From Subdoligranulum sp. CAG:314 (GTDB lineage Bacteria > Actinomycetota > Coriobacteriia > Coriobacteriales > Eggerthellaceae), in assembly GCA_963635715.1 (NCBI GenBank), contig CAVHFS010000001.1, positions 46,452 through 110,451 of the forward strand: DNA of 64,000 nucleotides, given 5' to 3'. Position numbers and translations under genes: made by a program. The notes beneath the pieces are model-generated. The model was not told the origin of the DNA and made no database searches. It worked only from the letters and a program-made list of their open reading frames with translations. Position 1 is the first letter of the stretch; each line of letters begins with the position of its first letter. Of this stretch, positions 3,597 to 47,260 are shown one piece after another.

Positions 3597-4225
3597 TAGC
3601 GGTTCCTCCTTGCCACGCGAGCCACCTGCACGCACACGCCCGCAACCAGAGCAATGGCAACCGCACCAGCAATAGCCAACTCGTGAATAGTCCAGCCGTT
3701 TTGGAGTTCGTCGGACGTGGTGAACGTATATACCTTGGCAGCACCGAGCTCGTCTTCGCCATTAGCGGCCACAATACCCTCATCGACCACCACCTGGTAT
3801 TCGGCAGCGGGCTGCAGCCATTCGTCGCAATAGATATAAATAAGCTGGCGGTCGCCGTGGTCATGCGCGCCGCCCGCGTAGCTGCCCGCAACCTCGGTTC
3901 CGTCAGGGCCGACGAGGTGAACCTTCGATAGGTTTTCCTCCACAAAGGTATCGTCTTTGCCTGGTGCGGCATACGAGACGTTCTTGTCGAACTGCACGTA
4001 CAGCAAATACGCCGACCCAGGTTCGGGACTCACGCGACCCTCGTCGGTTCCGCTGCCCAAAAAACTCAACTCATCGGCGCACATCACGCCACCTGCCGCA
4101 AACGCTGTCTGCGGCAGCGCCACCATGCACATGGCCGCAGCAAGAACCGCCGCCGCAACGTAGGCCCAAAGGCACTGCGCCTTGCTGTCCACCACACGGG
4201 CGATGCTTGTTTCGGTCAGATGCAT
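3596..4225 (-). CDS. membrane-anchored extracellular protein (Ig-like fold suspected)
   Basis: Start moved to MHLTETS..., preceded by AGGGGGT; the first 14 codons of the track ORF overlap a terminator hairpin. Signal/anchor AAAVLAAAMCMVALPQTAFA, a C-terminal TM helix and an RVARRNR tail. Confidence 0.55.
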   Translation of the reverse strand: MHLTETSIARVVDSKAQCLWAYVAAAVLAAAMCMVALPQTAFAAGGVMCADELSFLGSGTDEGRVSPEPGSAYLLYVQFDKNVSYAAPGKDDTFVEENLSKVHLVGPDGTEVAGSYAGGAHDHGDRQLIYIYCDEWLQPAAEYQVVVDEGIVAANGEDELGAAKVYTFTTSDELQNGWTIHELAIAGAVAIALVAGVCVQVARVARRNR

Positions 4226-4243
4226 GAATGGACTACCCCCTAC

Positions 4244-4287
4244 ATAAAAAAGGCCGAAGCGCTGCAAATGTGCGCAACGCTTCGGCC
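4244..4287 (-). terminator. intrinsic terminator downstream of the LRR surface protein gene
   Basis: Perfect 10-bp stem GGCCGAAGCG/CGCTTCGGCC (4252-4261 / 4278-4287), followed on the minus strand by TTTTTTAT. Confidence 0.6.
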
Positions 4288-4319
4288 GAAGCCATGCAAT
4301 CGCTTATAAAGCGCCGCGT

Positions 4320-6038
4320 TTAGCGGCGAGCGATGCGCTTTCTGGCGAAAGCGACAACTGCAGCCGCCATCGCCGAGGCGAAAGCCACAGCAGGAACGGC
4401 ACCCGCTGCAGCATCGCCCGTCTGGGCGAGCGTTTGCACGCCGGCGTTATTGGTGCTGCCCGCCTGCTGTGCATTGCTGCCAGAGCCGGTATCTCCGGCA
4501 TTGGTCGAACCGCCAGGGGTGGTGGGCTCGGAAGCCTTGGCCTCCCACTTGGAATACAGCGTTACGTCGTCGTACAAAGGCTTGCCGAAATCGAACGCCT
4601 GGGTGCAATACGGGTCGGAATACCAGCCCTTGAACACGTAGCCGTCGCGCGCGGGAGCCATAGGCTCGGCGATGGTACCGTCGGCCTTGACCTGCAGCTC
4701 GGTCTTCGTGCCGTCGACATTGCTGACGCTCGCCTTCACAGGCACCCAGCCGGCATACAGGCACGCGCCGTCGGCGACGGGCTGCGTGAAATCGAACTCT
4801 GCCGTGCACGTCTCGTCGGAGAACCAGCCAGCGAACTTGTAGCCCGCGCGGATGGGATCGGCGTCGGGCTTGGCGATCATGCCGTTCTCGTCGGCGGTAA
4901 TCGTGCCGTTCTCGGAGCCGTTGCCGTAATTCACATCGACGCTGACGATTTGCTTCCAGCCGGCATAGGCGACGACGCCGTGCTCCATGGGAGCCGTGAA
5001 GTCGTACGGAGTGGCGCATTCGGCGTCGGAATACCAACCGGTGAAGGTATAGCCGTCTCGCGTCGGAGAAGGGGCATCGTCGGCGCTGCCAAGGCAAGAG
5101 TCGAATTCGACCCACTGGGCGTCGATGGACTCAGCGCCATCGTAGTTGCCGTCGAACAGCTGCTGGAGCTTTATCGTGCACGATGGGTTAATCTTTTTGG
5201 AAGCTGCGAGGCCTTCGCTCAAATCGTTTGCGCCATACACCAACACCTCCGCAGCAACGTTCTTGTCGGAAGTATCGAAGAGGGATCCGCCTAATGAGGT
5301 AACGGACGAAGGGATGGACACATGCTCCAACTTCCAGCAGAGCTGGAAGGCCCTGTTTCCAATCGACGTCACCGTATCGGGTATATCCATTGACCGCAAT
5401 TCGCCCATTTGAACGAAGGCATAGTCACCGAGGGTCGTCAAGGTTTTTGGGAAAACAATCTCTTCGATGTTCGATTGGGCGAATACGCTTTTGTCTTCGA
5501 TCTCGGTTATTCCCATCTCAGACAAGTCAAGTGTTCTAAAGGATTGGTTCCCTTTAAAAGCCTGAGGCGAGAGTTTGACAATGCCGCACCCATTCGGGAA
5601 TGAAAGCTTGCTGAGATTCGGCGCCGAACCTAACGCAGGAAGTTCAGTTACCGTCGACGGCAAGACGATCTCTTCAACGGTATCCAACACGGGTTTGAAG
5701 ACATTGTAGGAAATTGAGTTAGTGTCAACATCGTCGCTAAACACCAGACGTTTCGTTGCGGAAGTAATCTCGTTCGGAATATTTCCACGACCGTCAAATT
5801 TCTGCAGAAAGCCACTTACCGTTAACGTTCCATCCGAAAAACTCCACGTTCCATACTTACGCTTCGAATTGAATATCCCGCTAGCCGAAGCTCCATCCTC
5901 GGAATAAGCCGCGATACTTTCACTAGCATCCCCCCCTATTCCAAGTTCGATTTCAGAATCGGCCAAAGCAACAGAAGGCAATGCGCAGAAGGCCAATGCG
6001 ACGGAGAGGGAGACCGGTGCTATCTTCTTCATTTTCAC
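4320..6038 (-). CDS. cell-wall-anchored surface protein: leucine-rich repeats, three Listeria-Bacteroides type repeats and an LAQTG sorting signal
   Basis: Signal peptide MKMKKIAPVSLSVALAFCALPSVALA and BspA-like LRR units. Three GY(T/K/V)F(T/A/K)GW(Y/F)SD...DF repeats. C-terminal LAQTG, then a hydrophobic stretch and RKRIARR. Confidence 0.85.
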   Translation of the reverse strand: MKMKKIAPVSLSVALAFCALPSVALADSEIELGIGGDASESIAAYSEDGASASGIFNSKRKYGTWSFSDGTLTVSGFLQKFDGRGNIPNEITSATKRLVFSDDVDTNSISYNVFKPVLDTVEEIVLPSTVTELPALGSAPNLSKLSFPNGCGIVKLSPQAFKGNQSFRTLDLSEMGITEIEDKSVFAQSNIEEIVFPKTLTTLGDYAFVQMGELRSMDIPDTVTSIGNRAFQLCWKLEHVSIPSSVTSLGGSLFDTSDKNVAAEVLVYGANDLSEGLAASKKINPSCTIKLQQLFDGNYDGAESIDAQWVEFDSCLGSADDAPSPTRDGYTFTGWYSDAECATPYDFTAPMEHGVVAYAGWKQIVSVDVNYGNGSENGTITADENGMIAKPDADPIRAGYKFAGWFSDETCTAEFDFTQPVADGACLYAGWVPVKASVSNVDGTKTELQVKADGTIAEPMAPARDGYVFKGWYSDPYCTQAFDFGKPLYDDVTLYSKWEAKASEPTTPGGSTNAGDTGSGSNAQQAGSTNNAGVQTLAQTGDAAAGAVPAVAFASAMAAAVVAFARKRIARR

Positions 6039-6045
6039 CTCCCTG

Positions 6046-6087
6046 AAAACGAAAAGCCCATAGCCATCGAAAAAGCAGGCTATGGGC
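6046..6087 (-). terminator. intrinsic terminator
   Basis: Perfect 10-bp stem GCCCATAGCC/GGCTATGGGC, followed on the minus strand by TTTTCGTTTTC. It sits between the 6095-6946 gene and the LRR gene. Confidence 0.65.
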
Positions 6088-6094
6088 CATGCGA

Positions 6095-6946
6095 TTAGAA
6101 TTCGAATTGAACCGTGCTTCCAAGCAGGACGGTTTCGCTATTGCCGCGCAAGCCGTTCTCAAACTGGAGAGTGGTATCGCCGAGCGTGATTTCGTCCGCC
6201 TTGATCTTCAAAACAATCGTCTTGGAAGAATGGGTGGCGCTTTCGACGGTCAGGATACCCGAGCCGTCGGCCAAAGACGCGATCACTTCGCCCGTCTCGG
6301 TGTCCAAAAGGGTAATGTTGGACTTATTGAGATTTTCATACGCCTGAGCGCTATCGTAGCTCTTGAATCCAGCGTTCTGCTTGTACGTGACGCGATAGTA
6401 GCCATCGGAGCCAAGCGTGGGAGCGGAAAGCGTATTGGTATAGGTGTCTGCCGTCGCGCTATGAGAGACCTTCGTCACCGCGGGGTCGGTAACCAGAATG
6501 GAGTTCTTGCCGGAGCCCTGATATCCATACGTGGTGTCGCTGCCAGCAACGGTGACCTTCAGGGTCGTCTGCTTCAGAATCGTAAAGCCACTGCAGGGTT
6601 TACCAGAATTTTTATCGGGCTGAGCGCCGGCCAGCAGATACACCGTCACGGTGTAGTCGCCAGCGGTGGTGCCGATGAACGTACCGTTATGTTTGTTGAC
6701 CGTAGCGCCGGAGCCAGAAAGCACGTAGTCAAAGTGATAATCACCATTAACCGTCTTGTCGGCCTTGAAGTACTGGCTCAGATCGGTCGAGCTTCCCGTA
6801 GTCACCGTAATTGCCGTAGCGCTGGCGTCGATGCCACCAGTAGTTGCGTCGTCCGCGTACGCGGCGGCGGGAGCGATGCCCACGAGGGACAGGGTCAACG
6901 CCATCGATGCGAACAACGACACGAATTTGCGTCGAGTAATCGACAT
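6095..6946 (-). CDS. Tat-signal secreted protein (beta-rich, Ig-like)
   Basis: 283 aa. N-terminus MSITRRKFVSLFASMALTLSLVGIAPAAAYA fits the twin-arginine consensus (T-R-R-x-F). The rest is Thr/Ser/Gly-rich beta-strand-like sequence with no family recognised. Confidence 0.7.
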   Translation of the reverse strand: MSITRRKFVSLFASMALTLSLVGIAPAAAYADDATTGGIDASATAITVTTGSSTDLSQYFKADKTVNGDYHFDYVLSGSGATVNKHNGTFIGTTAGDYTVTVYLLAGAQPDKNSGKPCSGFTILKQTTLKVTVAGSDTTYGYQGSGKNSILVTDPAVTKVSHSATADTYTNTLSAPTLGSDGYYRVTYKQNAGFKSYDSAQAYENLNKSNITLLDTETGEVIASLADGSGILTVESATHSSKTIVLKIKADEITLGDTTLQFENGLRGNSETVLLGSTVQFEF

Positions 6947-7280
6947 GTCTTACCTTCTTCCTAAAAGTTAGACGTTTGCATTACCCAGCTTCGAGCGCTC
7001 TCCGCCGGACCCTTCTCCCCTGCTCAGATGGCCAACGGCGCGGTTCTAGACCCGCTGTTTCCCCTGGTTTATTCTCTCGCAAGATAGTTAGGTTTTTCGA
7101 AAAGGTACCTGAAAACTTCGCCTAACACAAGGGTTTATTCTTGTTTTTGAATAAAATTATGCCCAAGCGGCAGAGAATCCTCCACCGCAGCAACGCTTGC
7201 CGCAAGCGCCATCAAGCTGGTTGGCGACGCCTCTCATGGCAGCCAAGCCAGGAACAATACACGCGGCATCGATCAGCGCG

Positions 7281-7917: not shown

Positions 7918-9135
7918 CTAGTAGAACAAATCCACTTCGTCTTTGAGGAACTCTTCGATGCCGCATGCGCCAGATGCCGCGCCGCCGACAATGATTCGCT
8001 TTGCGCTTGGGTTCGCAGATAGAAAATCGGCCATTCCGCTTTGGCCTCTTTCATTTCCGCTTTTCACCTCGATAGCGGAAAGCGAGTCAAATCCCTTCGA
8101 AACGACGAAGTCGACCTCCTTCGTTCCCTCGCGCCACCAATAAATGCTAAGGCTCTCTTCGGGCGCCCGAGCGAGAAGTCGCGCACCCACCGCCGACTCA
8201 ACCAGACGCCCCCGCAAATCGGGTTCGCCCAAATACCTCGCCTTTTCAATTCCCGACGACGCCGTCATGAGCGACGTGTCGTACACCATAAAGCGCGGCG
8301 ACGATTTTCTCCTCTTCACCTCTTTGGCATCGTATTTCTGAATGCCACAGAGCATCCCTGCCTTATTGAGCAAATCAAGATAATGCGCAATCGTCACCGT
8401 GTTGCCAGCATCTTGCAGCTGACCAAGCATTTTGTTATACGAAAGCTCTTGCGCAGAATATGCTGCGCCAAGTCGGAAAAGAGCGCGCATAAGCGCCGGC
8501 TTGCGAACATCATCAAGGGCCAGCACGTCTTGCGAAATCGTAGGCTCAATAATGGCATCGCGAACGTACGAAACCCAGCGGATATCGTCATTCGCGAACC
8601 GAGCCGCCCCTGGATAACCGCCGTAATACAAATAGTCATCAAACGAGAAACCAAACGCCTGCGAGCATTCCGAATAGCTCCAATGAGGGGAATGGACCAG
8701 TTCGAAGCGTCCCATAAGGGAATCTTCGAGCCCCTTATGCAGCAGCAATGACGAGGAGCCGCTCAGGACAACTCGAACTGGCATATCGTTTCGACGGTCA
8801 GCGTCGTAAAGGGCCTTAACGACAAGCGACCAATGGGGGACTTTCTGAATTTCGTCCACGACGAGCACCACAGGTCGCGACCCCGACCGTGTTGCGTTTC
8901 GCGCTTGCTGCCATTCAACTTGAAGCCAGCTTTCACTCGGAACAACCGCGTCGTCTGCGCTTACGAAAAACTGTTCCATGTCGATTTTCGCCAAAGCCTG
9001 GCTAAGCATCGTGCTTTTGCCCGTCTGACGGGGCCCAACGACAACCTGCATAAGAGGGTTGTTCGTTTCAAGAATTCTATCGACGATGCCGCTCACATAG
9101 TGTCGCTCAAACATTTCAATGCCCCGAATTCTCAT
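7918..9135 (-). CDS. ATP-binding protein, AAA_14 ATPase plus DUF4143 (PD-(D/E)xK-like) domains
   Basis: Walker A GPRQTGKST, Walker B VLVVDEIQ, and C-terminal EVDFVVSKG...AIEVKSG. By alignment to the paralog MKLINRSTYMNKL, the real start may be MFERHY at 9114. The ATG at 9135 lies inside the repeat array. Confidence 0.85.
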   Translation of the reverse strand: MRIRGIEMFERHYVSGIVDRILETNNPLMQVVVGPRQTGKSTMLSQALAKIDMEQFFVSADDAVVPSESWLQVEWQQARNATRSGSRPVVLVVDEIQKVPHWSLVVKALYDADRRNDMPVRVVLSGSSSLLLHKGLEDSLMGRFELVHSPHWSYSECSQAFGFSFDDYLYYGGYPGAARFANDDIRWVSYVRDAIIEPTISQDVLALDDVRKPALMRALFRLGAAYSAQELSYNKMLGQLQDAGNTVTIAHYLDLLNKAGMLCGIQKYDAKEVKRRKSSPRFMVYDTSLMTASSGIEKARYLGEPDLRGRLVESAVGARLLARAPEESLSIYWWREGTKEVDFVVSKGFDSLSAIEVKSGNERGQSGMADFLSANPSAKRIIVGGAASGACGIEEFLKDEVDLFY

Positions 9136-9310
9136 TGTACTGAGTATTTTTACTCATTGTACTGAGTATTTTTACTCATTGTACTGAGTATTTTTACTCA
9201 TTGTACTGAGTATTTTTACTCATTGTACTGAGTATTTTTACTCATTGTACTGAGTATTTTTACTCATTGTACTGAGTATTTTTACTCAGTACAATGAGAA
9301 TTCGAGGGGC
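9121..9310. repeat. inverted repeat arms (9121-9144 and 9285-9310) framing the 22-bp array
   Basis: gccccgaattctcattgtactgag versus the reverse complement of ctcagtacaatgagaattcgaggggc; identical apart from a 2-nt indel. Each arm carries an outward-facing ATGAGAATTCG. Confidence 0.9.
9131..9284. repeat. tandem repeat, 7 perfect copies of the 22-bp unit CTCATTGTACTGAGTATTTTTA
   Basis: Counted unit by unit (9131, 9153, 9175, 9197, 9219, 9241, 9263) with no mismatches. Confidence 0.97.
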
Positions 9311-9360
9311 GATGCCTTCGCGACGGGCGTATTGTTATTTGAGAAACAGCGGACGGATGC

Positions 9361-9445
9361 GGACATTTTTGAGCGTTTTCGGACATATTCTCCCTCTTTT
9401 AGGACATTGTCCGCAAATGTCCTAAAAGAGGACCGCCGCATCCGC
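9361..9445. repeat. hairpin repeat element, copy A
   Basis: GGACAT motifs at 9361, 9381 and 9402. 15-bp stem 9393-9407 / 9417-9431 with loop TGTCCGCAA. Aligns with copies B and C. Confidence 0.85.
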
Positions 9446-9449
9446 CTTC

Positions 9450-10844
9450 CTATTTCGCCCTAACATACTTTCTTAACCGCGTCTCCCCCGTTCCCAGAAG
9501 CTCGCCAGCGTTGACCCTTCCCGATATATGCCTTCGCACCGTCCGCTCGGTCACATTCGCGATATTCGCTACCGCCGCCACGGTTACATAGCCATAAGAC
9601 TCCAACATACGTTCTATAACCCAGTCAACATCAAGCCTCTGATTTGATTCCGAACTCGATACCACGGGAACTCGCGCCTCAAACACGTCACCTTCGATAA
9701 GCTCGGGTTGGCCGCCGCCATACACCCATGAATACTTGAACAAATTCCTCGTGCCGCTCCCCAGCGATTCCGCCCGTCCAATATTGCTAAAAAACTCAGC
9801 AATAATTGGATTCTTCGGTAATGGGTTAAAGCGTCCAGGCGATAGTTCGCCGGTAAAACGGGGGCGACTCGCGTTCTCTGTACGAATATTCCCCGCATCG
9901 ATAACCATTTTGGCAGGATAGGGACTGGTGTACTCGCGATGGACGAGCGTGTTTGCGATTAGCTCACGCGAAATAACGTCTCTTAAGCTCACCGACTGCG
10001 TTCCGTCAAGGAAGAACTTGTCGGGCAGATGCTTTTGAGCGAACTCCAAAAGGACATCGTAAGCCTCGATGAGATTGGTCTTCACAACGATACGGTCATC
10101 ATAGCGATCAACATTGTCGCGCTGAACATACGCATCGGTTTTGTACGCTGGTGCAATGCTGGCAATTACATCGTCCTTGCCAAGCAAGAGCGCAGCGGCA
10201 AGCGTATACCCCTCGCGGCCCGTCTCGTAATCTTTGAGATAAAGATTTGCGCTGCGAAGCAATTCCTCATCGCTCATCTCGGACCAGGGGTGGTTGGAGC
10301 GTTTAGCCGTCGCCATTTTTCTAACACGCGCGAGCAGATCAAGGCGCAAGTCACTCAACCCAAGGTAGGGATAGACCTTCCGTTCGGAATAGTATTCCTG
10401 CTTACGGATATACATGGCCGCAAGCTGCGTGTCGGTCGCAACCTTTCTATCAGTATCGGCAATCCTGTCGTATGCCACGCCCTTCAACCTATGGACGACA
10501 GCACCGACCGTAACCCATATGCGCAAAACTAGCTTTTCCTCGAATTCCACTCTTTCGAACTCAACAGAAGGCGGAACATTGAAAAAGCTCGGATCATTCA
10601 GACGGTTTGCTATGTTACGTTCGATTTCAACAGCACGATCTGGATCAATCCCAATGACTTCGGGCTTACCCGTACTGGATTTCTCGGCATCGACAATCCC
10701 CAGAAAGATATTGCCTCCCTGTCTATTCGCGAATGAGCAAATCGTTTCGAACGTATCAATTTCTGGCACATTTCCGCATCGTTTGAATTCGACGGAAATC
10801 CCCTCCCCTTGAACGAGAATCAACTTGATGTCGTCCAGAGTCAT
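9450..10844 (-). CDS. AlbA_2 (Schlafen-like) plus HATPase_c_4 (RecG C-terminal-like) plus HTH putative DNA-binding ATP-binding protein
   Basis: N-terminal GEGISVEFKRCGN (AlbA_2 signature), SRELIANTLVHREY (HATPase_c_4 signature) and a C-terminal HTH. ATG 10844 is preceded by AAAGGTGG. Confidence 0.85.
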   Translation of the reverse strand: MTLDDIKLILVQGEGISVEFKRCGNVPEIDTFETICSFANRQGGNIFLGIVDAEKSSTGKPEVIGIDPDRAVEIERNIANRLNDPSFFNVPPSVEFERVEFEEKLVLRIWVTVGAVVHRLKGVAYDRIADTDRKVATDTQLAAMYIRKQEYYSERKVYPYLGLSDLRLDLLARVRKMATAKRSNHPWSEMSDEELLRSANLYLKDYETGREGYTLAAALLLGKDDVIASIAPAYKTDAYVQRDNVDRYDDRIVVKTNLIEAYDVLLEFAQKHLPDKFFLDGTQSVSLRDVISRELIANTLVHREYTSPYPAKMVIDAGNIRTENASRPRFTGELSPGRFNPLPKNPIIAEFFSNIGRAESLGSGTRNLFKYSWVYGGGQPELIEGDVFEARVPVVSSSESNQRLDVDWVIERMLESYGYVTVAAVANIANVTERTVRRHISGRVNAGELLGTGETRLRKYVRAK

Positions 10845-10864
10845 ACCGCCCACCTTTCAATCGA

Positions 10865-11017
10865 CCTCTTTTAGGACATTTTAGCCATTATTCGGACATA
10901 TTCGCCCTCTTTTAGGACATTGTCCGCAAATGTCCTAAAAGAGGCCGCCGCAACCGCAAAGGTGTGATTCGGCGGATTAGGAGCGAAATCACAACAGGGA
11001 AGGGGTCGATTCATCAG
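10865..11017. repeat. hairpin repeat element, copy B (long form, with an extra direct arm)
   Basis: 15-bp stem 10906-10920 / 10930-10944. A third arm CCTCTTTTAGGACATT at 10865-10880. The right-hand extension CAAAGGTGTGATTCGGCGGATTAGGAGCGAA...ATTCATCAG is shared with copy C. Confidence 0.85.
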
Positions 11018-11189
11018 TACATTCAAACAGCATCAAATGAGACAGGCGAGCGAAGACGGGAAGCCGACCGATGCCGACGAGACATCGGCTTGGGACGACG
11101 CGATCCACTACGACCGCGACAAAGACCATCACCATCCGCAACGCGAGGCATGCCACAACCCACACGACGCGAGTACGATTTTCGGTTAC

Positions 11190-11633
11190 TCAGAAACCGC
11201 AACTGTCGCCGATTTTTCGAAGGAAGTCTGCAGGCTCGATGGCTGGGACGGGGCTACCGAGGAAATCCTTCACGTTCCGGGTGACGACGAAGTCGGCGGC
11301 GAGCCTCTGAGCCGTGGCCGCCTGCACGGCGTCCTCGTAATCCCTCCAGCGCATCGACGCGGCCGCCTTGAGGTCAGAGGGCCGCAGCTCGGCGATGCCA
11401 ACCGCCATATCAATCGTGTCGATCACGGCTTCGACCAAGGCGGCGTCGAGCTCCTTGCGCATGATGTAGACGATATTCGAAATGCTCAGAGCCGACACGT
11501 GGCCAGAGACCACGCCTCCCTCGCAAAGATTGAGAACCGCCTCGGAGGCGTCGACGAACGGCTCGCGTGCGCAAAGAACGTCGAGGACGACGTTAGTATC
11601 GACCAGAATCGATGCGCTCGGCGACATGCTCAT
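11190..11633 (-). CDS. vapC: type II toxin, PIN-domain ribonuclease VapC family
   Basis: ILVDTNVVLDVL N-terminal PIN motif, about 145 aa. Overlaps the upstream antitoxin gene. Confidence 0.85.
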   Translation of the reverse strand: MSMSPSASILVDTNVVLDVLCAREPFVDASEAVLNLCEGGVVSGHVSALSISNIVYIMRKELDAALVEAVIDTIDMAVGIAELRPSDLKAAASMRWRDYEDAVQAATAQRLAADFVVTRNVKDFLGSPVPAIEPADFLRKIGDSCGF

Positions 11634-11832
11634 CCCTCGCTTCCTTATCGTCGTAATCGCGCTTCAAAATCCCGCGTAGAGAGCTCGTGAGGTATCTTGT
11701 CTTCTGCTCGGGAGAGACGAAGCGGCCGATTTCGCGGCCGCGCCTCATAACGACGATTTCCTCGCCCTCGTCGACGAGCTTCGCGTATTTTCCGAAGTTG
11801 TTCTTGAATTCCGTAGCCGATGCGACAACCAT
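11593..11832 (-). CDS. type II antitoxin, Phd/YefM family
   Basis: 79 aa, MVVASATEFKNNFGKYAKLVDEGEEIVVMRRGREIG, a typical Phd/YefM N-terminus. Directly upstream of and overlapping vapC. Confidence 0.8.
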   Translation of the reverse strand: MVVASATEFKNNFGKYAKLVDEGEEIVVMRRGREIGRFVSPEQKTRYLTSSLRGILKRDYDDKEARDEHVAERIDSGRY

Positions 11833-11867
11833 TTTCTCGCCCCCATTCCCATGCTATTAGCTAATTC

Positions 11868-11895
11868 ATTATATTATCAATTGGCTAATTTTGAA
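11868..11895 (-). promoter_or_regulatory. candidate sigma-70 promoter of phd-vapC
   Basis: Minus strand TTCAAA (11890-11895), 16 nt, TATAAT (11868-11873). ATTAGC/GCTAAT inverted repeats flank the -10, giving a possible antitoxin operator. Confidence 0.45.
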
Positions 11896-12013
11896 CATAT
11901 TCGGCCCCTTTTAGGACATTGTCCGCAAATGTCCTAAAAGGGGCCGCCGCAACCGCAAAGGTGCGATTCGACGGATTAGGAGCGAAGCCAGCAGAGAAGG
12001 GACCAATTCATCG
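11890..12013. repeat. hairpin repeat element, copy C (long form)
   Basis: 18-bp perfect stem 11901-11918 / 11928-11945 with the same 9-nt loop. Relative to A and B it has a compensatory T>C / A>G change in the stem. Confidence 0.85.
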
Positions 12014-12110: not shown

Positions 12111-12507
12111 TCACTCGTTTGCAGTCTTCTCTGCGTACAGTTTGAACAGGTACGCGACGATTTTCTCCTCGTCGCCGACGAAATCGACGCCGTAGGCCGC
12201 CTCAACAGCGGCGTCGAGCGCCTTATGCGCGACAAGCAAATCGGCTGGATTTTATCAGGGTCATAGAGTTTAGCGAGCATGGTGCCGAGATGCGTCTCCA
12301 GACATCGAGCACGCCTTGAGCACGTGCTTCAACGGTCGCACACGGCCCATCGGAGGGAGCAGGCCAAACGAAGTTGTCGTAGACGACACCGCCCGAGTAG
12401 CGATAGTCGCTTTTCAAGCGTCCTGCCACCGTACGCATGCATGCGCTGTGAAACTGCAAATAGAGAACGCCGAAGTGGTACAAGGTAGCGTCAGGAATCA
12501 GGAACAC
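12111..12507 (-). pseudogene. remnant of the C-terminus of an MmeI-family (type IIL/IIG) restriction-modification methyltransferase; frameshifted and 5'-truncated
   Basis: GRLKSDYRYSGGVVYDNFVWP is the family signature. After a frameshift my translation reads PADLLVAHKALDAAVEAAYGVDFVGDEEKIVAYLFKLYAEKTANE*. No upstream roughly 800 aa of the enzyme is present. Confidence 0.7.
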
Positions 12508-12611
12508 TAAGTCACTGCAGAAGGCTCCAGAGTCGATAAACGCAAGTTATCCAATTGCTCACAAGCAGTTTAACACCACTTATTACAGAGTTTCCGACCC
12601 CTCTCGGGGAA

Positions 12612-13533: not shown

Positions 13534-13658
13534 GAAGCGGGGAATCGGCGAAGCGAGCCCGCGCCACATGGGTGCGGGCATCGGCCGCCAGGCCGATATC
13601 GCATGGCGCAGCCATACCTGGGCGCAAGCCCAGAATGAAACACCGGGCGCATACCGAA

Positions 13659-13710
13659 GCTATGACAAGCTCTGACAAAGCTCTGACAAGCTCTGACAAA
13701 GCTATGACAT
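13659..13710. repeat. short tandem repeat, five 10/11-bp units GCT(A/C)TGACAA(A)
   Basis: GCTATGACAA GCTCTGACAAA GCTCTGACAA GCTCTGACAAA GCTATGACA, read directly. It lies just 3' of the AlbA_2 gene that stops at 13716. Confidence 0.8.
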
Positions 13711-13715
13711 CATGC

Positions 13716-14804
13716 CTATGCCAGCGTATAGAACTGGTTGGGATCGGTGGCGGAGGATCCGTGCCACTCGAACATCCCGCCGTCTCCGGAGAGGCCCTTG
13801 AGAATGCGGCTCGCGGTGCGCTGCCCGCGACCGATATGCTCGGCGAGCTCCGCCGCCGTGACCTTGCCATTGGCGAACGCGAGCCGCACGGCGGCGAGCT
13901 CGTACTCGCCCAGCGCGGCCATGGATTCCTGCGAAATCCTGTCCTCCAGCGCCTCGCAGCGCCCGACCGTCCTCGCCACGATATTGTTCTCGAGCGTGAG
14001 CTTGACCTTCGCGTTGTCGGGCTCCGAGTACGTCGGGGCATTCAGGAGCATTCCTTGCATCTCGCTGTAGATGCGCTGCACGCCCTCGTTGAGCTCGCGG
14101 ACCCACCCGAATTCGGCGAGCGTGCGGGCGATGCGCGGGTTTCGCGAGTAGCGCGTCTCGCGCATGTTGTCGAGCGTCACGATGTTGGGCAGCGCGCCCG
14201 CGACCGTCAGCCTGCCGTCGCGCATAAAGCGCCGGCTCCTGAGCACCTGCTCGTCGGAAGCCTCGGTTCCGAACAATTCCTTGTAGCGATCGAGCACCTC
14301 GCGATCGACGTCGTCGATCGAGGAGTCCAACACGAGTTCGTCCTCGAAGACGCGCTGCCCCTTGTCGTATTCGAGCGCTGAGACCTGTTCGCGCGTCAGC
14401 TTGACGCTCTTGTCGTTCTGGCGCAGAAACACCTCGCCGTCGCTCGCCCGCGATATCACATGGTTGGGCGAGGCCTCGACGTCCAATACGAGCACGATGT
14501 CGCTTTCGCCTTTGGAATTCACCACGGGGATGCGCTCTTTATGCACAATGGGGCTCGGGGAGCATGTGGCGATCGGGGCACGTTCGAAATCCTCGACGTC
14601 GCGCGCGCCGTTGCGCGCGAAACCCGTCACCTCGCCGTCATCCTCGATGCCGATGACGAGTTTGCCGCCAGAGGCGTTCGCGAACGCGCTTATGTGCTTG
14701 GCGATTTCCTTGTCGTCTTTGCGGGCGCTTTTGCGGTCGAAGTACTGGCTTTCCTTCGCCGCAGATAGGAGGGCGATCTCGTTCGCCGCCACGGGCTGTT
14801 GCAT
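13716..14804 (-). CDS. AlbA_2 (Schlafen-like) domain protein with a C-terminal HTH; apparently lacks the HATPase_c_4 core
   Basis: Start MQQPVAANE is preceded by AAGGAG. AlbA_2 signature is ESQYFDRKSARKD...FANASGGKLVIGIEDDG. The sequence jumps from LTVAGAL to PNIVTLDNM..RYSRNPRIA without the RELxANAxVHRDY block found in the two paralogs. Confidence 0.75.
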   Translation of the reverse strand: MQQPVAANEIALLSAAKESQYFDRKSARKDDKEIAKHISAFANASGGKLVIGIEDDGEVTGFARNGARDVEDFERAPIATCSPSPIVHKERIPVVNSKGESDIVLVLDVEASPNHVISRASDGEVFLRQNDKSVKLTREQVSALEYDKGQRVFEDELVLDSSIDDVDREVLDRYKELFGTEASDEQVLRSRRFMRDGRLTVAGALPNIVTLDNMRETRYSRNPRIARTLAEFGWVRELNEGVQRIYSEMQGMLLNAPTYSEPDNAKVKLTLENNIVARTVGRCEALEDRISQESMAALGEYELAAVRLAFANGKVTAAELAEHIGRGQRTASRILKGLSGDGGMFEWHGSSATDPNQFYTLA

Positions 14805-14899
14805 TTGCGGCTCCTTCGTCATTCGGTGCATACCAGTGTAAACCAACGCCCGCCGACACCGACCCAAGACGCCGAATCCCGAGGCGATGCGCGAAATCG

Positions 14900-16231: not shown

Positions 16232-16309
16232 TGGTCGCGGGGACCGGATTTGAACCGATGACCTTCGGGTTATGAGCCCGACGAGCTGACCAGACTGCTC
16301 CACCCCGCA
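16232..16309 (-). tRNA. tRNA-Met (anticodon CAU), initiator-like
   Basis: The reverse complement TGCGGGGTGGAGCAGTCTGGTCAGCTCGTCGGGCTCATAACCCGAAGGTCATCGGTTCAAATCCGGTCCCCGCGACCA is nearly identical to E. coli tRNA-fMet as I recall it. It has three G:C pairs closing the anticodon stem, a weak 1:72 pair and an encoded CCA. Confidence 0.93.
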
Positions 16310-16367: not shown

Positions 16368-16520
16368 GCAAATTAGCCACAGAGAACGCACCGTCACGTT
16401 TTCTTCATAATCAAGCCGAATAAAACGATACACCGCAAGACGCCCACTCCCAGAACACAGGCCCCAAATTTTCAACTAGAATCGTTCACGGAAATGGAAT
16501 TCCGACCAAGGGAGGATACT

Positions 16521-17378
16521 ATGCCAACTCGCGATGAGCGCCGCACCGAAGCAGCCAAGCACTTAGCCCTCATGAAGGGCGCGTTCGCCAAAGAAACCCA
16601 GGCCACCATCGATGCCGCCATCATCTACGAAGAGGGCGACGCAGCAACTTTGGAACTGTCCGAACCCGCAGCCGAAACGACCGAAACCAGCGTCACCACC
16701 GATTTCACCGTTACCGCGCTGCGTCGCGCCCAGGGCAAAACGGCAATCGTCGACCCCGTGTCGTTCACGCGACCGGGAGGCGCATACCTCGACGGCTCGT
16801 TCGGGCCCGAACAAATCCTTTGCTCGGAAAGCAACCTCTACCCCGTGCTATGCGGCATGAAGGCCACCTACCACGACGCCAACCGCGGCTACGCATGCGG
16901 CCAGCTGTTCACCGGGCGTGCTCTGTACCTGCCTGGCGTCGCCTTCATTCGCAATGGCGAAATTCGCGAGGCCGACGTCATCGCCATAGCCGAACCCAAC
17001 CGCGAACGCGCGCTCGAAAACCATCGCTCGGAAACGGAATGCGACGACTGCCTGGCCGAGCGCGTCGATTCGATGCTGCGCATCGCCGCGGCGAACGGCA
17101 TAGAGACGCTCATCGTGGGCGCCTTTGGCTGCGGCCGCCAGGGATTCCCCGAAGCGCAGGTCATCTCGCTGTTCGAGAAATGGATCGCCGAGCACCCAGG
17201 CGCCATCGAGCACATCGTATTCGCCGTACCGCGCGCAAACTTCGCCGCCTTCGATGAGGCATTCGGCAAACCCGCGCCCGTCATTGAGGAAACCGTCGAA
17301 GTCAAGCCCGAAGAGGAGGAAGGCGACGATTTCGACATCCGTGCGATCGATCTGCCCGAAGGCATAACCATTCGCTAA
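16521..17378 (+). CDS. TIGR02452-family protein (microbial PARG-like macrodomain)
   Basis: Start is preceded by AAGGGAGG. Family-typical blocks are SFTRPGGAYLDGSFGPEQILCSESNLYPVL and ETLIVGAFGCGRQGFPEAQV. Confidence 0.75.
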   Translation: MPTRDERRTEAAKHLALMKGAFAKETQATIDAAIIYEEGDAATLELSEPAAETTETSVTTDFTVTALRRAQGKTAIVDPVSFTRPGGAYLDGSFGPEQILCSESNLYPVLCGMKATYHDANRGYACGQLFTGRALYLPGVAFIRNGEIREADVIAIAEPNRERALENHRSETECDDCLAERVDSMLRIAAANGIETLIVGAFGCGRQGFPEAQVISLFEKWIAEHPGAIEHIVFAVPRANFAAFDEAFGKPAPVIEETVEVKPEEEEGDDFDIRAIDLPEGITIR

Positions 17379-41343: not shown

Positions 41344-42555
41344 ATGAAGCTCATAAACCGATCAACCTATATGAACAAACTCGCAAGCGCGATGAACACA
41401 CCCGACATTAAAGTGATCACCGGCATCAGGCGCTGCGGCAAATCGAAGCTGCTCGAAGCGTTCGCCGACCACATACGCAAGTCCAACCCAACGGCGAACA
41501 TCATACGCATCAATTTCAACCTACTCGAATTCGAGCCGCTCATGGAGTACCGCGCGTTGCACAGCTATATCGAAGGGCATTTCGTCGAGGGCTGCGACAA
41601 CGTAATCATAATTGACGAAGTGCAAATGTGCGAAGGCTTCGAGAAAGCAATCAACAGCCTGCACGCGTCGGAGAAATACGATATCTATGTAACTGGCTCG
41701 AACGCCTTCTTGCTTTCGAACGACCTGTCGACCCTGTTCACGGGCAGAACCTTCGAAGTGGAGGTGTTTCCGTTCTCGCTCGCCGAATTCGCGCAATACC
41801 ACGAAATCTCATCGCCCGACGAGGCCTTGGATCGTTACCTGCGGGAGGGCGGAATGCCAGGTTCCTACTTATATCCCGACGAGGGGGCTCGATACGCTTA
41901 CATCTCTGACGTGCTTAGCACGCTCATCCTGCGCGACGTCAAACAGAAATACCGCATACGCAACGTCGAACAGCTCAAAAGAGCGTGCGAGTTCCTCATG
42001 GACAATATCGGCAACATCTCCTCGCTGAAGAACATGGCAGCAACGCTCTCTCAGGCAGGCCTGAGCATCAGCGATAAGACCTTGGCGGCATACATCGACC
42101 ATCTCTGCAACGCATTCGCCTTCTACCAAGTGCGCCGATACGACGTCGCAGGGAAGAAATATCTCTCAACGGGAGACAAATATTACCTGGCCGACCACTC
42201 ATTCCGCTATGCGCAGCTCGGTACCCGCAAGCTCGACTTCGGGCACGTCTACGAAAACATGGTGGCCATCGAGCTCCTGCGGCGCGGGTGGGAGGTATAC
42301 GTTGGCACCCTCTACCAGAAGGAAGTCGACTTCGTTGCCGTCAGGCGGGAACGACGCGTCTATATCCAGGTGAGCGACGACATCTCGCAAGAGGCCACCT
42401 TCGAACGCGAGATTGCACCCCTGCGAAAAATCCGCGACGCATACCCCAAGGCAATCATCGCAAAAACCGGCCACGAAACAACCGACTGGGACGGCATCAA
42501 GGTCATTGACCTGGGACGCTGGCTCATGGGGCAGACTAATGAGATAAGCGATTAA
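41344..42555 (+). CDS. ATP-binding protein, AAA_14 ATPase plus DUF4143
   Basis: Walker A GIRRCGKSKL, Walker B VIIIDEVQ, C-terminal EVDFVAVRRERRVYIQVSD. Paralog of the 7918-9135 gene. Confidence 0.85.
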   Translation: MKLINRSTYMNKLASAMNTPDIKVITGIRRCGKSKLLEAFADHIRKSNPTANIIRINFNLLEFEPLMEYRALHSYIEGHFVEGCDNVIIIDEVQMCEGFEKAINSLHASEKYDIYVTGSNAFLLSNDLSTLFTGRTFEVEVFPFSLAEFAQYHEISSPDEALDRYLREGGMPGSYLYPDEGARYAYISDVLSTLILRDVKQKYRIRNVEQLKRACEFLMDNIGNISSLKNMAATLSQAGLSISDKTLAAYIDHLCNAFAFYQVRRYDVAGKKYLSTGDKYYLADHSFRYAQLGTRKLDFGHVYENMVAIELLRRGWEVYVGTLYQKEVDFVAVRRERRVYIQVSDDISQEATFEREIAPLRKIRDAYPKAIIAKTGHETTDWDGIKVIDLGRWLMGQTNEISD

Positions 42556-45447: not shown

Positions 45448-45594
45448 TTTTACTTGCTCGTCATTTGCTTTTTTTGGGCCGAAAAGCGGCTATTTTTGGG
45501 CGCTTTCGCGCATCGCACACGTTTGACCTGGGTTTTCGTAAATCGGCTTTACTTGCTTCTTACTTGCTCGTCATTTGCTTCTTACTTGCTTTTT
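45448..45594. repeat. direct repeat DR1 (about 147 bp) with an internal 11-bp periodic A(C/T)TTGCT motif
   Basis: Aligns over its whole length with 47116-47260; I count about ten differences by eye. It contains TTACTTGCTCGTCATTTGCTT twice. Confidence 0.9.
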
Positions 45595-47115: not shown

Positions 47116-47260
47116 TTTTACTTGCTCGTCATTTGCTTTTTCGCGCCGAAAAGCGGCTATTTTTGGGCGCTTTCGCGCATCGCACGCGTTTGACCTGCGT
47201 TTTTGCAAATCTGCTTTACTTGCTTCTTACTTGCTCGTCATTTGCTTCTTACTTGCTTTT
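47116..47260. repeat. direct repeat DR2, partner of DR1
   Basis: Same order of sub-repeats as DR1. It begins about 30 nt after the stop of the AlbA_2 gene. Confidence 0.9.

Follow-up and report, generated by a model that had tools for sequence, protein, structure and literature searches.

What are the hairpin-forming repeats that punctuate a row of minus-strand genes in the genome named Subdoligranulum sp. CAG:314 (Eggerthellaceae; GenBank assembly GCA_963635715.1), and how are they related to the genes between them? We analyzed a window of 64,000 nucleotides (nt) of contig CAVHFS010000001.1 (positions 46,452 to 110,451), which contains three copies of the repeat, A, B and C. An earlier note on this DNA described them as a hairpin element dividing the region into single-module cassettes, and likened the layout to attC-punctuated cassette arrays or to repetitive extragenic palindromic/bacterial interspersed mosaic elements (REP/BIME). 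We found that the hairpin is part only of an element of ~80 base pairs (bp), each copy being an array of GGACA half-sites. With a probability of roughly 0.55, this array serves as operator for the Schlafen/AlbA_2-GHKL-winged-helix protein whose gene lies between copies A and B, and is also a recombination breakpoint.

Three copies of an array of phased half-sites

The 31-nt core of the repeat, TTTTAGGACATTGTCCGCAAATGTCCTAAAA, occurs exactly three times in the window (9397-9427, 10910-10940 and 11909-11939), with none expected according to 100 shuffles, and always on the plus strand, in agreement with the same orientation originally reported. A profile hidden Markov model (HMM) built from 18 related copies detected over the 64 kb only A (E-value (E) 2.6e-20, model positions 2-79), B (2.8e-21, positions 1-80) and C (1.1e-14, positions 1-57 only); the next best match had an E of 0.4. 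The perfect stems of 15, 15 and 18 bp with a constant 9-nt loop, as given earlier, were reproduced by a repeat finder. It reported perfect 16-nt arms with 7 nt between them for copy A, the equivalent 16 nt within a 19-nt pair at 95% (one mismatch) for copy B, and perfect 19-nt arms for copy C; with a 7-nt gap, these counts are equivalent to the stems above. The paired T>C and A>G change in copy C is real, both by reading and according to the repeat finder. The three hairpins fold with energies of -25, -26 and -35 kcal/mol (z-scores, -6 to -8). No T or U run follows the main stem on either strand in the three window copies, as had been noted, and a canonical intrinsic terminator was rejected on this ground.

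In ascending coordinates, i.e., in the reverse of the order of transcription, the minus strand carries AAA_14-DUF4143, the 22-bp array, A, AlbA_2, B, vapC-phd, C, the remnant of an MmeI-type gene and an IS3 fragment. The gene content by Pfam thus bears out the earlier description of one module per interval (the AlbA_2 gene from A to B, phd-vapC from B to C), with the MmeI-type remnant beyond C and the 22-bp array, 7.2 units long, beyond A. Copies B and C also share sequence outside the core, for which ~70 nt had been claimed; the repeat finder gives a similarity of 97 nt at 93%, and reading by eye extends it to ~125 nt. This extension lies outside the array that is conserved in other genomes. 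The C extension, together with the hairpin and the fourth half-site, forms a direct duplication of ~125 bp that flanks phd-vapC. In a related locus, L071 (related loci are designated by L numbers), the sequence homologous to the B extension is the native flank upstream of the AlbA_2 array.

Three features had not been mentioned previously, namely, a half-site within the hairpin loop, extra GGACAT copies in A and B, and the position of each copy 5' of the next gene. Read on the minus (gene) strand, the array starts with S1, TTTAGGACA, and 10 nt further on, within the hairpin "loop", S2 follows in the same direction as (C)GGACA; on the plus strand, this loop half-site reads TGTCC, making up GGACATTGTCC. 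S3, TGTCCTAAA, abuts S2 in the opposite direction, and in the window copies it is followed by two TGTCC pentamers, S4 after 21 nt and S5 after another 20 nt, such that S3, S4 and S5 point opposite to S1 and S2. The hairpin is the S1/S3 dyad of this array. The pattern GGACAT-N14/15-GGACAT occurs four times in the window (0 expected), in each case within copies A and B, which hold two further GGACAT copies each, 20-21 bp apart; GGACA-N0-2-TGTCC occurs three times, in each case in a hairpin loop. In copy B, S5 sits in a full additional copy of the arm, CCTCTTTTAGGACATTT (10865-10881). In copy C, S1-S3 are intact, S4 is degenerate (GAACAT, 11893-11898) and S5 is missing; this copy runs directly into a palindrome and the promoter-like site of phd-vapC (TTCAAA at 11895-11890 and TATAAT at 11873-11868, with a 16-nt spacer).

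Every copy lies directly 5' of the next minus-strand gene. The start codon is located 25-50 nt past S5, with the ribosome-binding site in between. In copy B, a TAAAAT hexamer that overlaps S5 is found 33 nt before the AlbA_2 ATG, and is separated from it by the Shine-Dalgarno-like AAAGGTGG. In all eight arrays located directly upstream of AlbA_2 homologues (8/8), TAAAAT, TATAAT or TAGAAT overlaps S5, whereas arrays in other positions mostly have no -10-like hexamer there. Copy A starts 19 nt past the AlbA_2 stop codon, upstream of the 22-bp array and the AAA_14-DUF4143 gene.

Several known sites share some of this anatomy. The operator of HrcA, known as CIRCE, is TTAGCACTC-N9-GAGTGCTAA, and has a dual role, as an operator in DNA and as an element in RNA. 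Its 9-N9-9 geometry is identical to that of the hairpin, and 6 of the 9 arm positions match (TTAGGACAT vs TTAGCACTC); CIRCE was rejected because the genes downstream are not groEL/dnaK and the extra half-sites S2, S4 and S5 have no counterpart in it, in addition to which the array is linked to AlbA_2 genes. The loop TTGTCCGCA resembles the actinobacterial DnaA box TTGTCCACA, which was rejected as well, given that the CACA end varies among the five sites and that there is no origin context. Plasmid rep iterons (pPS10 RepA, F RepE) similarly combine direct repeats, spaced by roughly two turns of the helix, with an inverted pair of their half-site, and are placed at the promoter of a winged-helix protein gene. 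Here, in contrast, there is no replication context, the protein is unrelated, half-sites measure no more than 5-10 bp, and another array lies beyond the gene.

Conservation of the array and its link to a Schlafen-type gene

Scanning one genome per species, 185,579 species in total, for TTTAGGACAT-N5-13-ATGTCCTAAA, we identified 20 loci; Coriobacteriia accounted for 11 (Enorma, Collinsella, Coprousia, Ellagibacter, Slackia, and further Eggerthellaceae and Coriobacteriaceae). A metagenome scan added 22 loci, and in both scans the strict pattern was found in 1-3 copies per genome. The Coriobacteriia copies have the same five-part array and align without gaps, with S2 present in nearly all of them; L005 and the locus L014/L029-33 are atypical variants. 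Among 12 diverse arrays, there is no variation in the three TGTCC pentamers (S3-S5), whereas only 39% of spacer positions are identical; the S3-to-S4 distance is 21-22 nt, and the S4-to-S5 distance is 20-21 nt. A search of viral contigs yielded neither the hairpin pattern in its Coriobacteriia form nor any AlbA_2 relative, and literature searches on the gene families and the motif returned no published description of the element.

Because the pentamers are conserved in fixed helical phase, and one of them lies in the loop, the element appears to be a protein-binding DNA array rather than an RNA helix. If it were an RNA element, it could serve the upstream gene, as a stable hairpin for termination or insulation, or the downstream gene, as a 5'-leader with alternative pairings that control it; we consider this quite improbable. 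Two of the conserved pentamers lie outside any helix, and pairing past the 10-bp arms is missing in many relatives. It should be noted that the hairpins are highly stable, that they begin 19-25 nt past every AlbA_2 stop codon, and that in copy B the left arm can pair with the S3 or the S5 copy, yielding an alternative helix of 20 nt. The single compensatory change in copy C also agrees with a role in RNA, as does the lengthening of the outer stem, by differing sequences, in some of the copies (mean run of 3.2 vs 1.0 in 2000 shuffles). However, a recombinant allele described below, L040, loses the outer pairing and keeps the array, and there is no U tract; a search of the window at the Rfam gathering thresholds returned a single tRNA and no match to the element. 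U-less hairpins have been proposed as terminators in Actinobacteria, although this is contested.

The genes directly downstream of the array are AlbA_2 homologues at many loci. At others, we found pth (Enorma, Collinsella, Coprousia), polA (one metagenome-assembled genome), phd (L037, as in the window), SIR2 and DUF3368. All close AlbA_2 homologues with enough flanking sequence (the window, L006, L013, L035/L024, L048-52, L053-60, L071, L072-73 and L074) have an array on both sides, one 25-50 nt before the start codon and the second 19-25 nt after the stop codon. Many other homologues are on contigs of ~1.5 kb that end inside the core, and the array accounts for the assembly of these genes as orphan ~1.5-kb contigs in metagenomes.

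The window protein (464 amino acids (aa)) has the Schlafen-like core with an E...EFK motif, in which E14, E19 and K21 are invariant. AlbA_2 was recognized in it by Pfam at an E of 1e-12, and HATPase_c_4 and HTH_DeoR were weak matches. In the AlphaFold model (mean predicted local distance difference test score, pLDDT, 86.7), residues 406-462 are arranged as helix-helix-helix-strand-strand. Foldseek matched the model to 3LMM over the full length and to SLFN5/13/14 at the N-terminal core, with weak matches (E 0.01-0.1) of the C-terminus to the winged helices of MarR, AspA and CadC. Judging from the model, the protein has the predicted COG2865-type architecture of an AlbA_2/Schlafen core, a GHKL-like middle and a C-terminal winged helix. 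No sequence match was obtained in PDB or NCBIfam, and PADLOC gave a weak, partial match only. Prokaryotic Schlafen domains are tRNA nucleases in type III CRISPR (clustered regularly interspaced short palindromic repeats) immunity (PMC13462974); given this activity, vapC and pth as neighbors are suggestive, and nothing more.

In distant homologues, both the site and the protein vary. The Bifidobacterium homologue (49% identical protein) is preceded by GGACA-N7-GGACATGTCC-N7-TGTCC-N7-TGTCC, the Gordonibacter homologue (53%) by three copies of TGTCCCGAATA, and a very divergent AlbA_2 gene in a 27%-GC Bacilli genome, recovered in the motif scan, by the dyad and one TGTCC before its start. Conversely, the homologue P0081 (55%) has a different half-site, with copies of ATAGACCAAA/TTTGGTCTAT that include a hairpin, and in its winged helix the recognition helix is changed from RRH to QRY and the wing from GETRxRKY to SENMKHGY. 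The proteins with GGACA-type sites keep TxRTxxRH and TRxR(K/R)Y, but the comparison to the TAGACC-type site is of three cases vs one. The Bifidobacterium, Gordonibacter and P0081 homologues have an upstream array only.

On the basis of these data, we infer that the Schlafen-winged-helix protein binds the array. Half-sites in helical phase at the promoter of the protein's own gene are what would be predicted for an operator array of a winged-helix protein, and they are present here, with pentamers and spacings (10, 21-22 and 20-21 nt) that do not vary. An oligomer of the protein would occupy the phased half-sites and, with S5 overlapping the putative -10 element of the protein's own promoter at copy B, occupation would result in autorepression. 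Copy A, past the stop codon, could end or insulate the transcript, or act as an auxiliary operator; where a co-directional gene follows, as AAA_14-DUF4143 does here, that gene could come under the same control. More generally, the downstream array may be a terminator or insulator of the AlbA_2 transcript, an auxiliary operator, or the second end of a mobile unit. The winged-helix-fused branch (COG2865, >3,000 homologues) is without a described target, and the array is a concrete candidate for its DNA site. The candidate regulon would comprise toxin-antitoxin pairs and the defence candidates PDC-S01 and SIR2, and, surprisingly, would extend to pth and polA. A comparable arrangement is known for the BrxR/CapW-type WYL regulators, DNA-binding proteins encoded beside variable defence or toxin genes, with a palindrome-containing operator at their own promoter; the same regulator family recurs beside many unrelated systems. 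The differences are that the protein here is Schlafen nuclease-like with GHKL, not WYL, and that the predicted operator is a five-part phased array on both sides of the gene, instead of a single inverted repeat.

A number of observations weigh against this operator model. The assignment of the AlbA_2 protein as the binder rests on gene linkage and on a single case of co-variation of site and protein. In L072 and L074, the gene next to the downstream array is in convergent orientation, and therefore the array is not a simple operator for a downstream target. Single arrays occur at the housekeeping genes pth and polA with no AlbA_2 gene in the 5-8 kb retrieved per contig. The excess of outer-stem pairing hints at selection or homogenization for hairpin potential, which a plain operator does not need. 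Finally, no repeat was evident at the homologues from a Bacteroides plasmid and a Mycoplasma phage, and that from a Legionella plasmid has only a direct repeat, AAAACTGGTACCA, in two copies; with the most distant homologues lacking a comparable multi-copy array, the array is not universal in the AlbA_2 family.

The single arrays could alternatively indicate that another host factor, for example, a global regulator of Coriobacteriia, binds the array, with pth, polA and the island genes forming its regulon and the AlbA_2 gene being a frequent member. We regard this as improbable, despite the complete five-site arrays that are kept upstream of pth in Enorma, Collinsella and Coprousia, and upstream of polA, without an adjacent AlbA_2 gene. 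Between Enorma and Collinsella, the pth arrays retain five of five pentamers, with spacers identical at 8/17 and 4/15 positions; given that the pentamers are kept despite near-random spacers, these arrays are maintained and are not decaying scars. On the other hand, GGACA accompanies AlbA_2 genes in Bifidobacterium, Gordonibacter and the low-GC Bacilli genome, the homologue with a different winged helix has a different half-site (one case), and 1-3 strict-pattern copies per genome are few for a global regulon.

Variants of the array and repeats near other AlbA_2 genes were also recorded. L005 (from an uncultured member of the Coriobacteriaceae; 2460-2600) contains a fully symmetric palindrome of ~80 bp, made of the same half-sites with TGTCCC/GGGACA on both sides of an 8-nt center; the adjoining open reading frames (ORFs) have no Pfam match. 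In L038, a metagenome contig with 39% GC, the TTTAGGACAT dyad is embedded in runs of an 11-bp tandem repeat, GTTTAGGACA(T/C), with three copies before it and five after it (1-130), and more ~200 nt further on (300-340), beside a gene of the FtsK/SpoIIIE family; the region looks like the iteron region of a mobile element with a related half-site. The Legionella homologue (L076; 44% identical; Legionella adelaidensis plasmid NZ_LR134418.1, 345709-348482), with its two AAAACTGGTACCA copies upstream, lies between an apparent tRNA 3' end (by eye) and a site-specific integrase, the start of which overlaps the homologue's stop codon. The window encodes a second AlbA_2 and HATPase_c_4 protein (383 aa, minus strand, 13716-14867); 6 nt past the stop codon of this gene are five direct repeats, TGTCA(G/T)AGCTT, with a period of 10-11 nt (13657-13709), and the IS3 fragment is just beyond. 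In L053, approximately nine CGAAC(T) repeats with a period of ~10 nt (7106-7182) extend from the end of an AlbA_2-HATPase_c_4 paralogue (5629-7113). Three AlbA_2 paralogue groups therefore have arrays of short phased repeats at the stop codon or immediately after it, each group with a half-site of its own.

Gain and loss of genes at the arrays

Do the arrays delimit units that come and go, as the repeat-cassette-repeat layout had suggested? In four comparisons of occupied and empty loci, we observed gain or loss of genes with the indel breakpoints inside the array, and as a description this part of the earlier proposal stands. First, L071, with the closest AlbA_2 homologue (94% aa identity), has no phd-vapC and one array copy fewer; the homologue of the flank upstream of copy C joins the AlbA_2 array directly. 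This junction identifies phd-vapC plus one ~125-bp copy as an indel. Second, phd-vapC is likewise missing from Ellagibacter L006, in which array-AlbA_2-array precedes an MmeI-type gene that is intact. Third, Collinsella L013 has the order glmU-prs-array-AlbA_2-array-pth, whereas Collinsella L016 has prs-array-pth. Fourth, L035 has array-AlbA_2-array, whereas L040 has a single hybrid array that combines the left flank of copy 1 with the S4/S5 flank of copy 2. The exchange between L035 and L040 must have occurred within the 33-bp core, the only sequence common to the two flanking copies; the other three comparisons do not discriminate on exchange within a short core. The earlier note had also stated that scattering of the element through core intergenic regions, with no rearrangement there, would speak against cassettes. 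The element is indeed present in such regions (prs-pth and upstream of polA), yet rearrangements occur at these sites.

Under the operator-and-breakpoint reading, recombination between arrays would insert or delete whatever lies between them, because the arrays are direct repeats, and copy C would be a partial duplicate left at the phd-vapC junction. Homologous exchange appears to be favored by the 70 bp of the B/C duplication that lie outside the array, and by L035, in which fragments of the C-terminal domain of a UDP-glucose/GDP-mannose dehydrogenase (1007-1591 and 4125-4436; 82% nt identity) flank array-AlbA_2-array, the downstream one beginning mid-gene right after S5. These flanking fragments are a signature of Campbell-type duplication.

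The same comparisons can be read in terms of site-specific recombination. The array would then be an attachment (att)-like site, with the S1/S3 dyad as the crossover core and S2, S4 and S5 as accessory sites; a recombinase from another locus (or, conceivably, the Schlafen-GHKL-winged-helix protein itself) would excise circles of one core and the gene, and integrate them at single arrays (prs-pth, polA), amounting to a true cassette system. We consider this possible, although unlikely. Between occupied and empty alleles, the difference amounts to exactly one gene and one array, the single site of L040 is a hybrid of the two flanking copies, and the L035/L040 exchange within the 33-bp core is what would be expected of a short crossover core, 33 bp being a short homology for RecA-dependent exchange. 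However, the 93% B/C duplication of ~125 bp, with 70 bp outside the array, fits homologous exchange, and the 82%-identical dehydrogenase 3' duplication in L035 is a signature of homologous integration. The 9-bp spacer, filled by a half-site, is a poor fit to tyrosine recombinases, the cores of which usually have an overlap region of 6-8 bp. Single arrays in conserved core intergenic regions, complete at prs-pth across genera, would correspond to attB-like sites, and unrelated cargo (phd-vapC) is bracketed, too; by contrast, the distant homologues with an upstream array only resemble an ordinary autoregulated gene. L040 additionally carries two hairpins 250 bp apart with no AlbA_2 gene between them, and L023 and L035 share an identical segment of 287 bp that stops exactly after S5 and is joined to different truncated genes, both in line with an att-like site. 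Nevertheless, no recombinase is consistently nearby. Among the ORFs scanned with Pfam (at 4.3-17.4 kb of the window), there was no tyrosine recombinase, only an IS3 transposase fragment; in the window island and ~20 related loci, there is no linked recombinase except for one unrelated phage integrase, 2 kb off (L049).

A related proposal, that the array and the Schlafen-GHKL-winged-helix gene constitute a new mobile cassette, is in our estimate distinctly unlikely. In such a cassette, the protein would bind the bracketing arrays and, either by itself or together with a host factor, promote excision as well as integration into single arrays (prs-pth, polA), with neighboring defence and toxin-antitoxin genes carried along or exchanged. 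If true, this would be an integron-like system in Actinomycetota without an integrase of a known family.

The likeness to integrons did not hold up at the level of the site. As in attC cassette arrays, hairpin repeats in the same orientation separate single genes or operons, including a toxin-antitoxin pair, and occupied and empty alleles differ by one gene and one repeat. Unlike attC sites, the element has no R''/L''/L'/R' boxes and no extrahelical bases, its stems are perfect, it is found in 1-3 copies per genome of an actinobacterial host, it is located 5' of genes with their own promoters, and neither IntI nor attI is associated with it. Specifically, a reading of the three copies with their surroundings showed no GTTRRRY/RYYYAAC pair bordering the stem, the outer part of which is CCYCTTTT/AAAAGRGG; the perfect arms of 16-19 nt have no bulges, no intI was found among the tested ORFs at 4.3-17.4 kb, and there are only three sites in 64 kb. 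The Acinetobacter pdif modules, which include toxin-antitoxin pairs, are similarly bracketed by short palindromic protein-binding sites in varied contexts; however, pdif sites are 11-6-11 XerC/XerD sites in alternating orientation, whereas here the core is 10-9-10 with an internal GGACA half-site, in direct orientation. The core also does not resemble the actinobacterial dif consensus, and the Xer/dif assignment was rejected by geometry.

REP/BIME, the second likeness suggested, requires a high dispersed copy number, which three copies in 64 kb do not provide. A selfish intergenic repeat of the REP/BIME type or of the miniature inverted-repeat transposable element (MITE) type is highly improbable. 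Although the element is palindromic, intergenic and multi-copy, and breaks assemblies, its three copies in 64 kb are all in one low-GC island (9.3-12.0 kb), strict matches are few (one or two per representative genome), and its position is always set relative to a gene start. No terminal inverted repeats or target-site duplications were seen, and no REP-associated tyrosine transposase (RAYT) or other transposase partner was found among the ORFs scanned; a MITE was further rejected because empty sites (L016, L040) keep one full array.

Whatever the mechanism, the array marks the entry and exit of genes in gut Coriobacteriia genomes, including insertion into the housekeeping glmU-prs-pth cluster, and could serve as a marker for variable islands.

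Coordinates and neighboring genes

Table 1. Array copies and associated features, in window coordinates.
Feature	Position	Strand	Basis or remark
AAA_14-DUF4143 ATPase gene	7918..9135	-	PADLOC defence candidate PDC-S01, E 2e-164; downstream of copy A
22-bp x7.2 tandem array	9131..9288	.	closed by one inverted copy, 9283-9298; abuts the AAA_14-DUF4143 start codon
Array copy A, complete	9350..9432	-	HMM, repeat finder, motif counts
Copy A half-sites S5, S4, S3	9361-9365; 9381-9385; 9402-9406		plus-strand letters, S5 GGACA
Copy A half-sites S2, S1	9408-9412; 9418-9422		plus-strand letters, TGTCC
Copy A hairpin arms	9393-9408 and 9416-9431		
Schlafen/AlbA_2 + GHKL-like (HATPase_c_4) + C-terminal winged-helix gene, 464 aa	9450..10844	-	candidate array binder
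Array copy B, complete	10863..10947	-	directly 5' of the AlbA_2 gene
Copy B half-sites S5, S4, S3, S2, S1	10874-10878; 10894-10898; 10915-10919; 10921-10925; 10931-10935		
Copy B hairpin arms	10903-10921 and 10929-10947		
-10-like hexamer TAAAAT	10878..10883	-	overlaps S5 of copy B; putative promoter element, read from the sequence
B/C shared extension, B copy	10945..11017	-	D2 repeat family, distal to the hairpin
phd-vapC toxin-antitoxin operon (phd 11593-11832, vapC/PIN_3 11190-11633)	11190..11832	-	Pfam; absent from L071 and L006
Array copy C, partial	11888..11946	-	arms 11902-11920 and 11928-11946
B/C shared extension, C copy	11944..12013	-	repeat finder, L071 comparison
MmeI-type (type IIG) restriction-modification gene remnant	12114..12546	-	intact at the same place in L006

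The three copies are located in a stretch of low GC (51-53% at 8-12 kb vs ~60% elsewhere in the window). A tRNA gene (16235-16309, minus strand) and a microbial PARG-like gene (16494-17378) border this low-GC stretch, which contains insertion sequences, and the stretch fits a tRNA-adjacent variable island.

Tandem arrays are found directly upstream of the starts of other AAA_14-DUF4143 (PDC-S01) genes, too: 3.6 units of 23 bp in Gordonibacter (L063, 2964-3046) and 2.3 units of 32 bp in Bifidobacterium (L061, 9138-9210), the repeat units being unrelated in sequence to each other or to the 22-bp unit of the window. This suggests a second family of self-binding defence-candidate genes. In the window, and likewise in at least eight further loci (L061, L063-66, L072-74) from Bifidobacterium, Gordonibacter and members of the Coriobacteriia, AlbA_2-winged-helix genes are only a few kb away from AAA_14-DUF4143 genes, and the two may constitute a two-gene association. 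A second, distant AAA_14-DUF4143 homologue is present at 41395-42336 of the window. Further on, two arrays of the same 11-nt unit, TTACTTGCTTC, each with 3.9 units and 75% matches, lie 1.7 kb apart (45549-45591 and 47216-47258).

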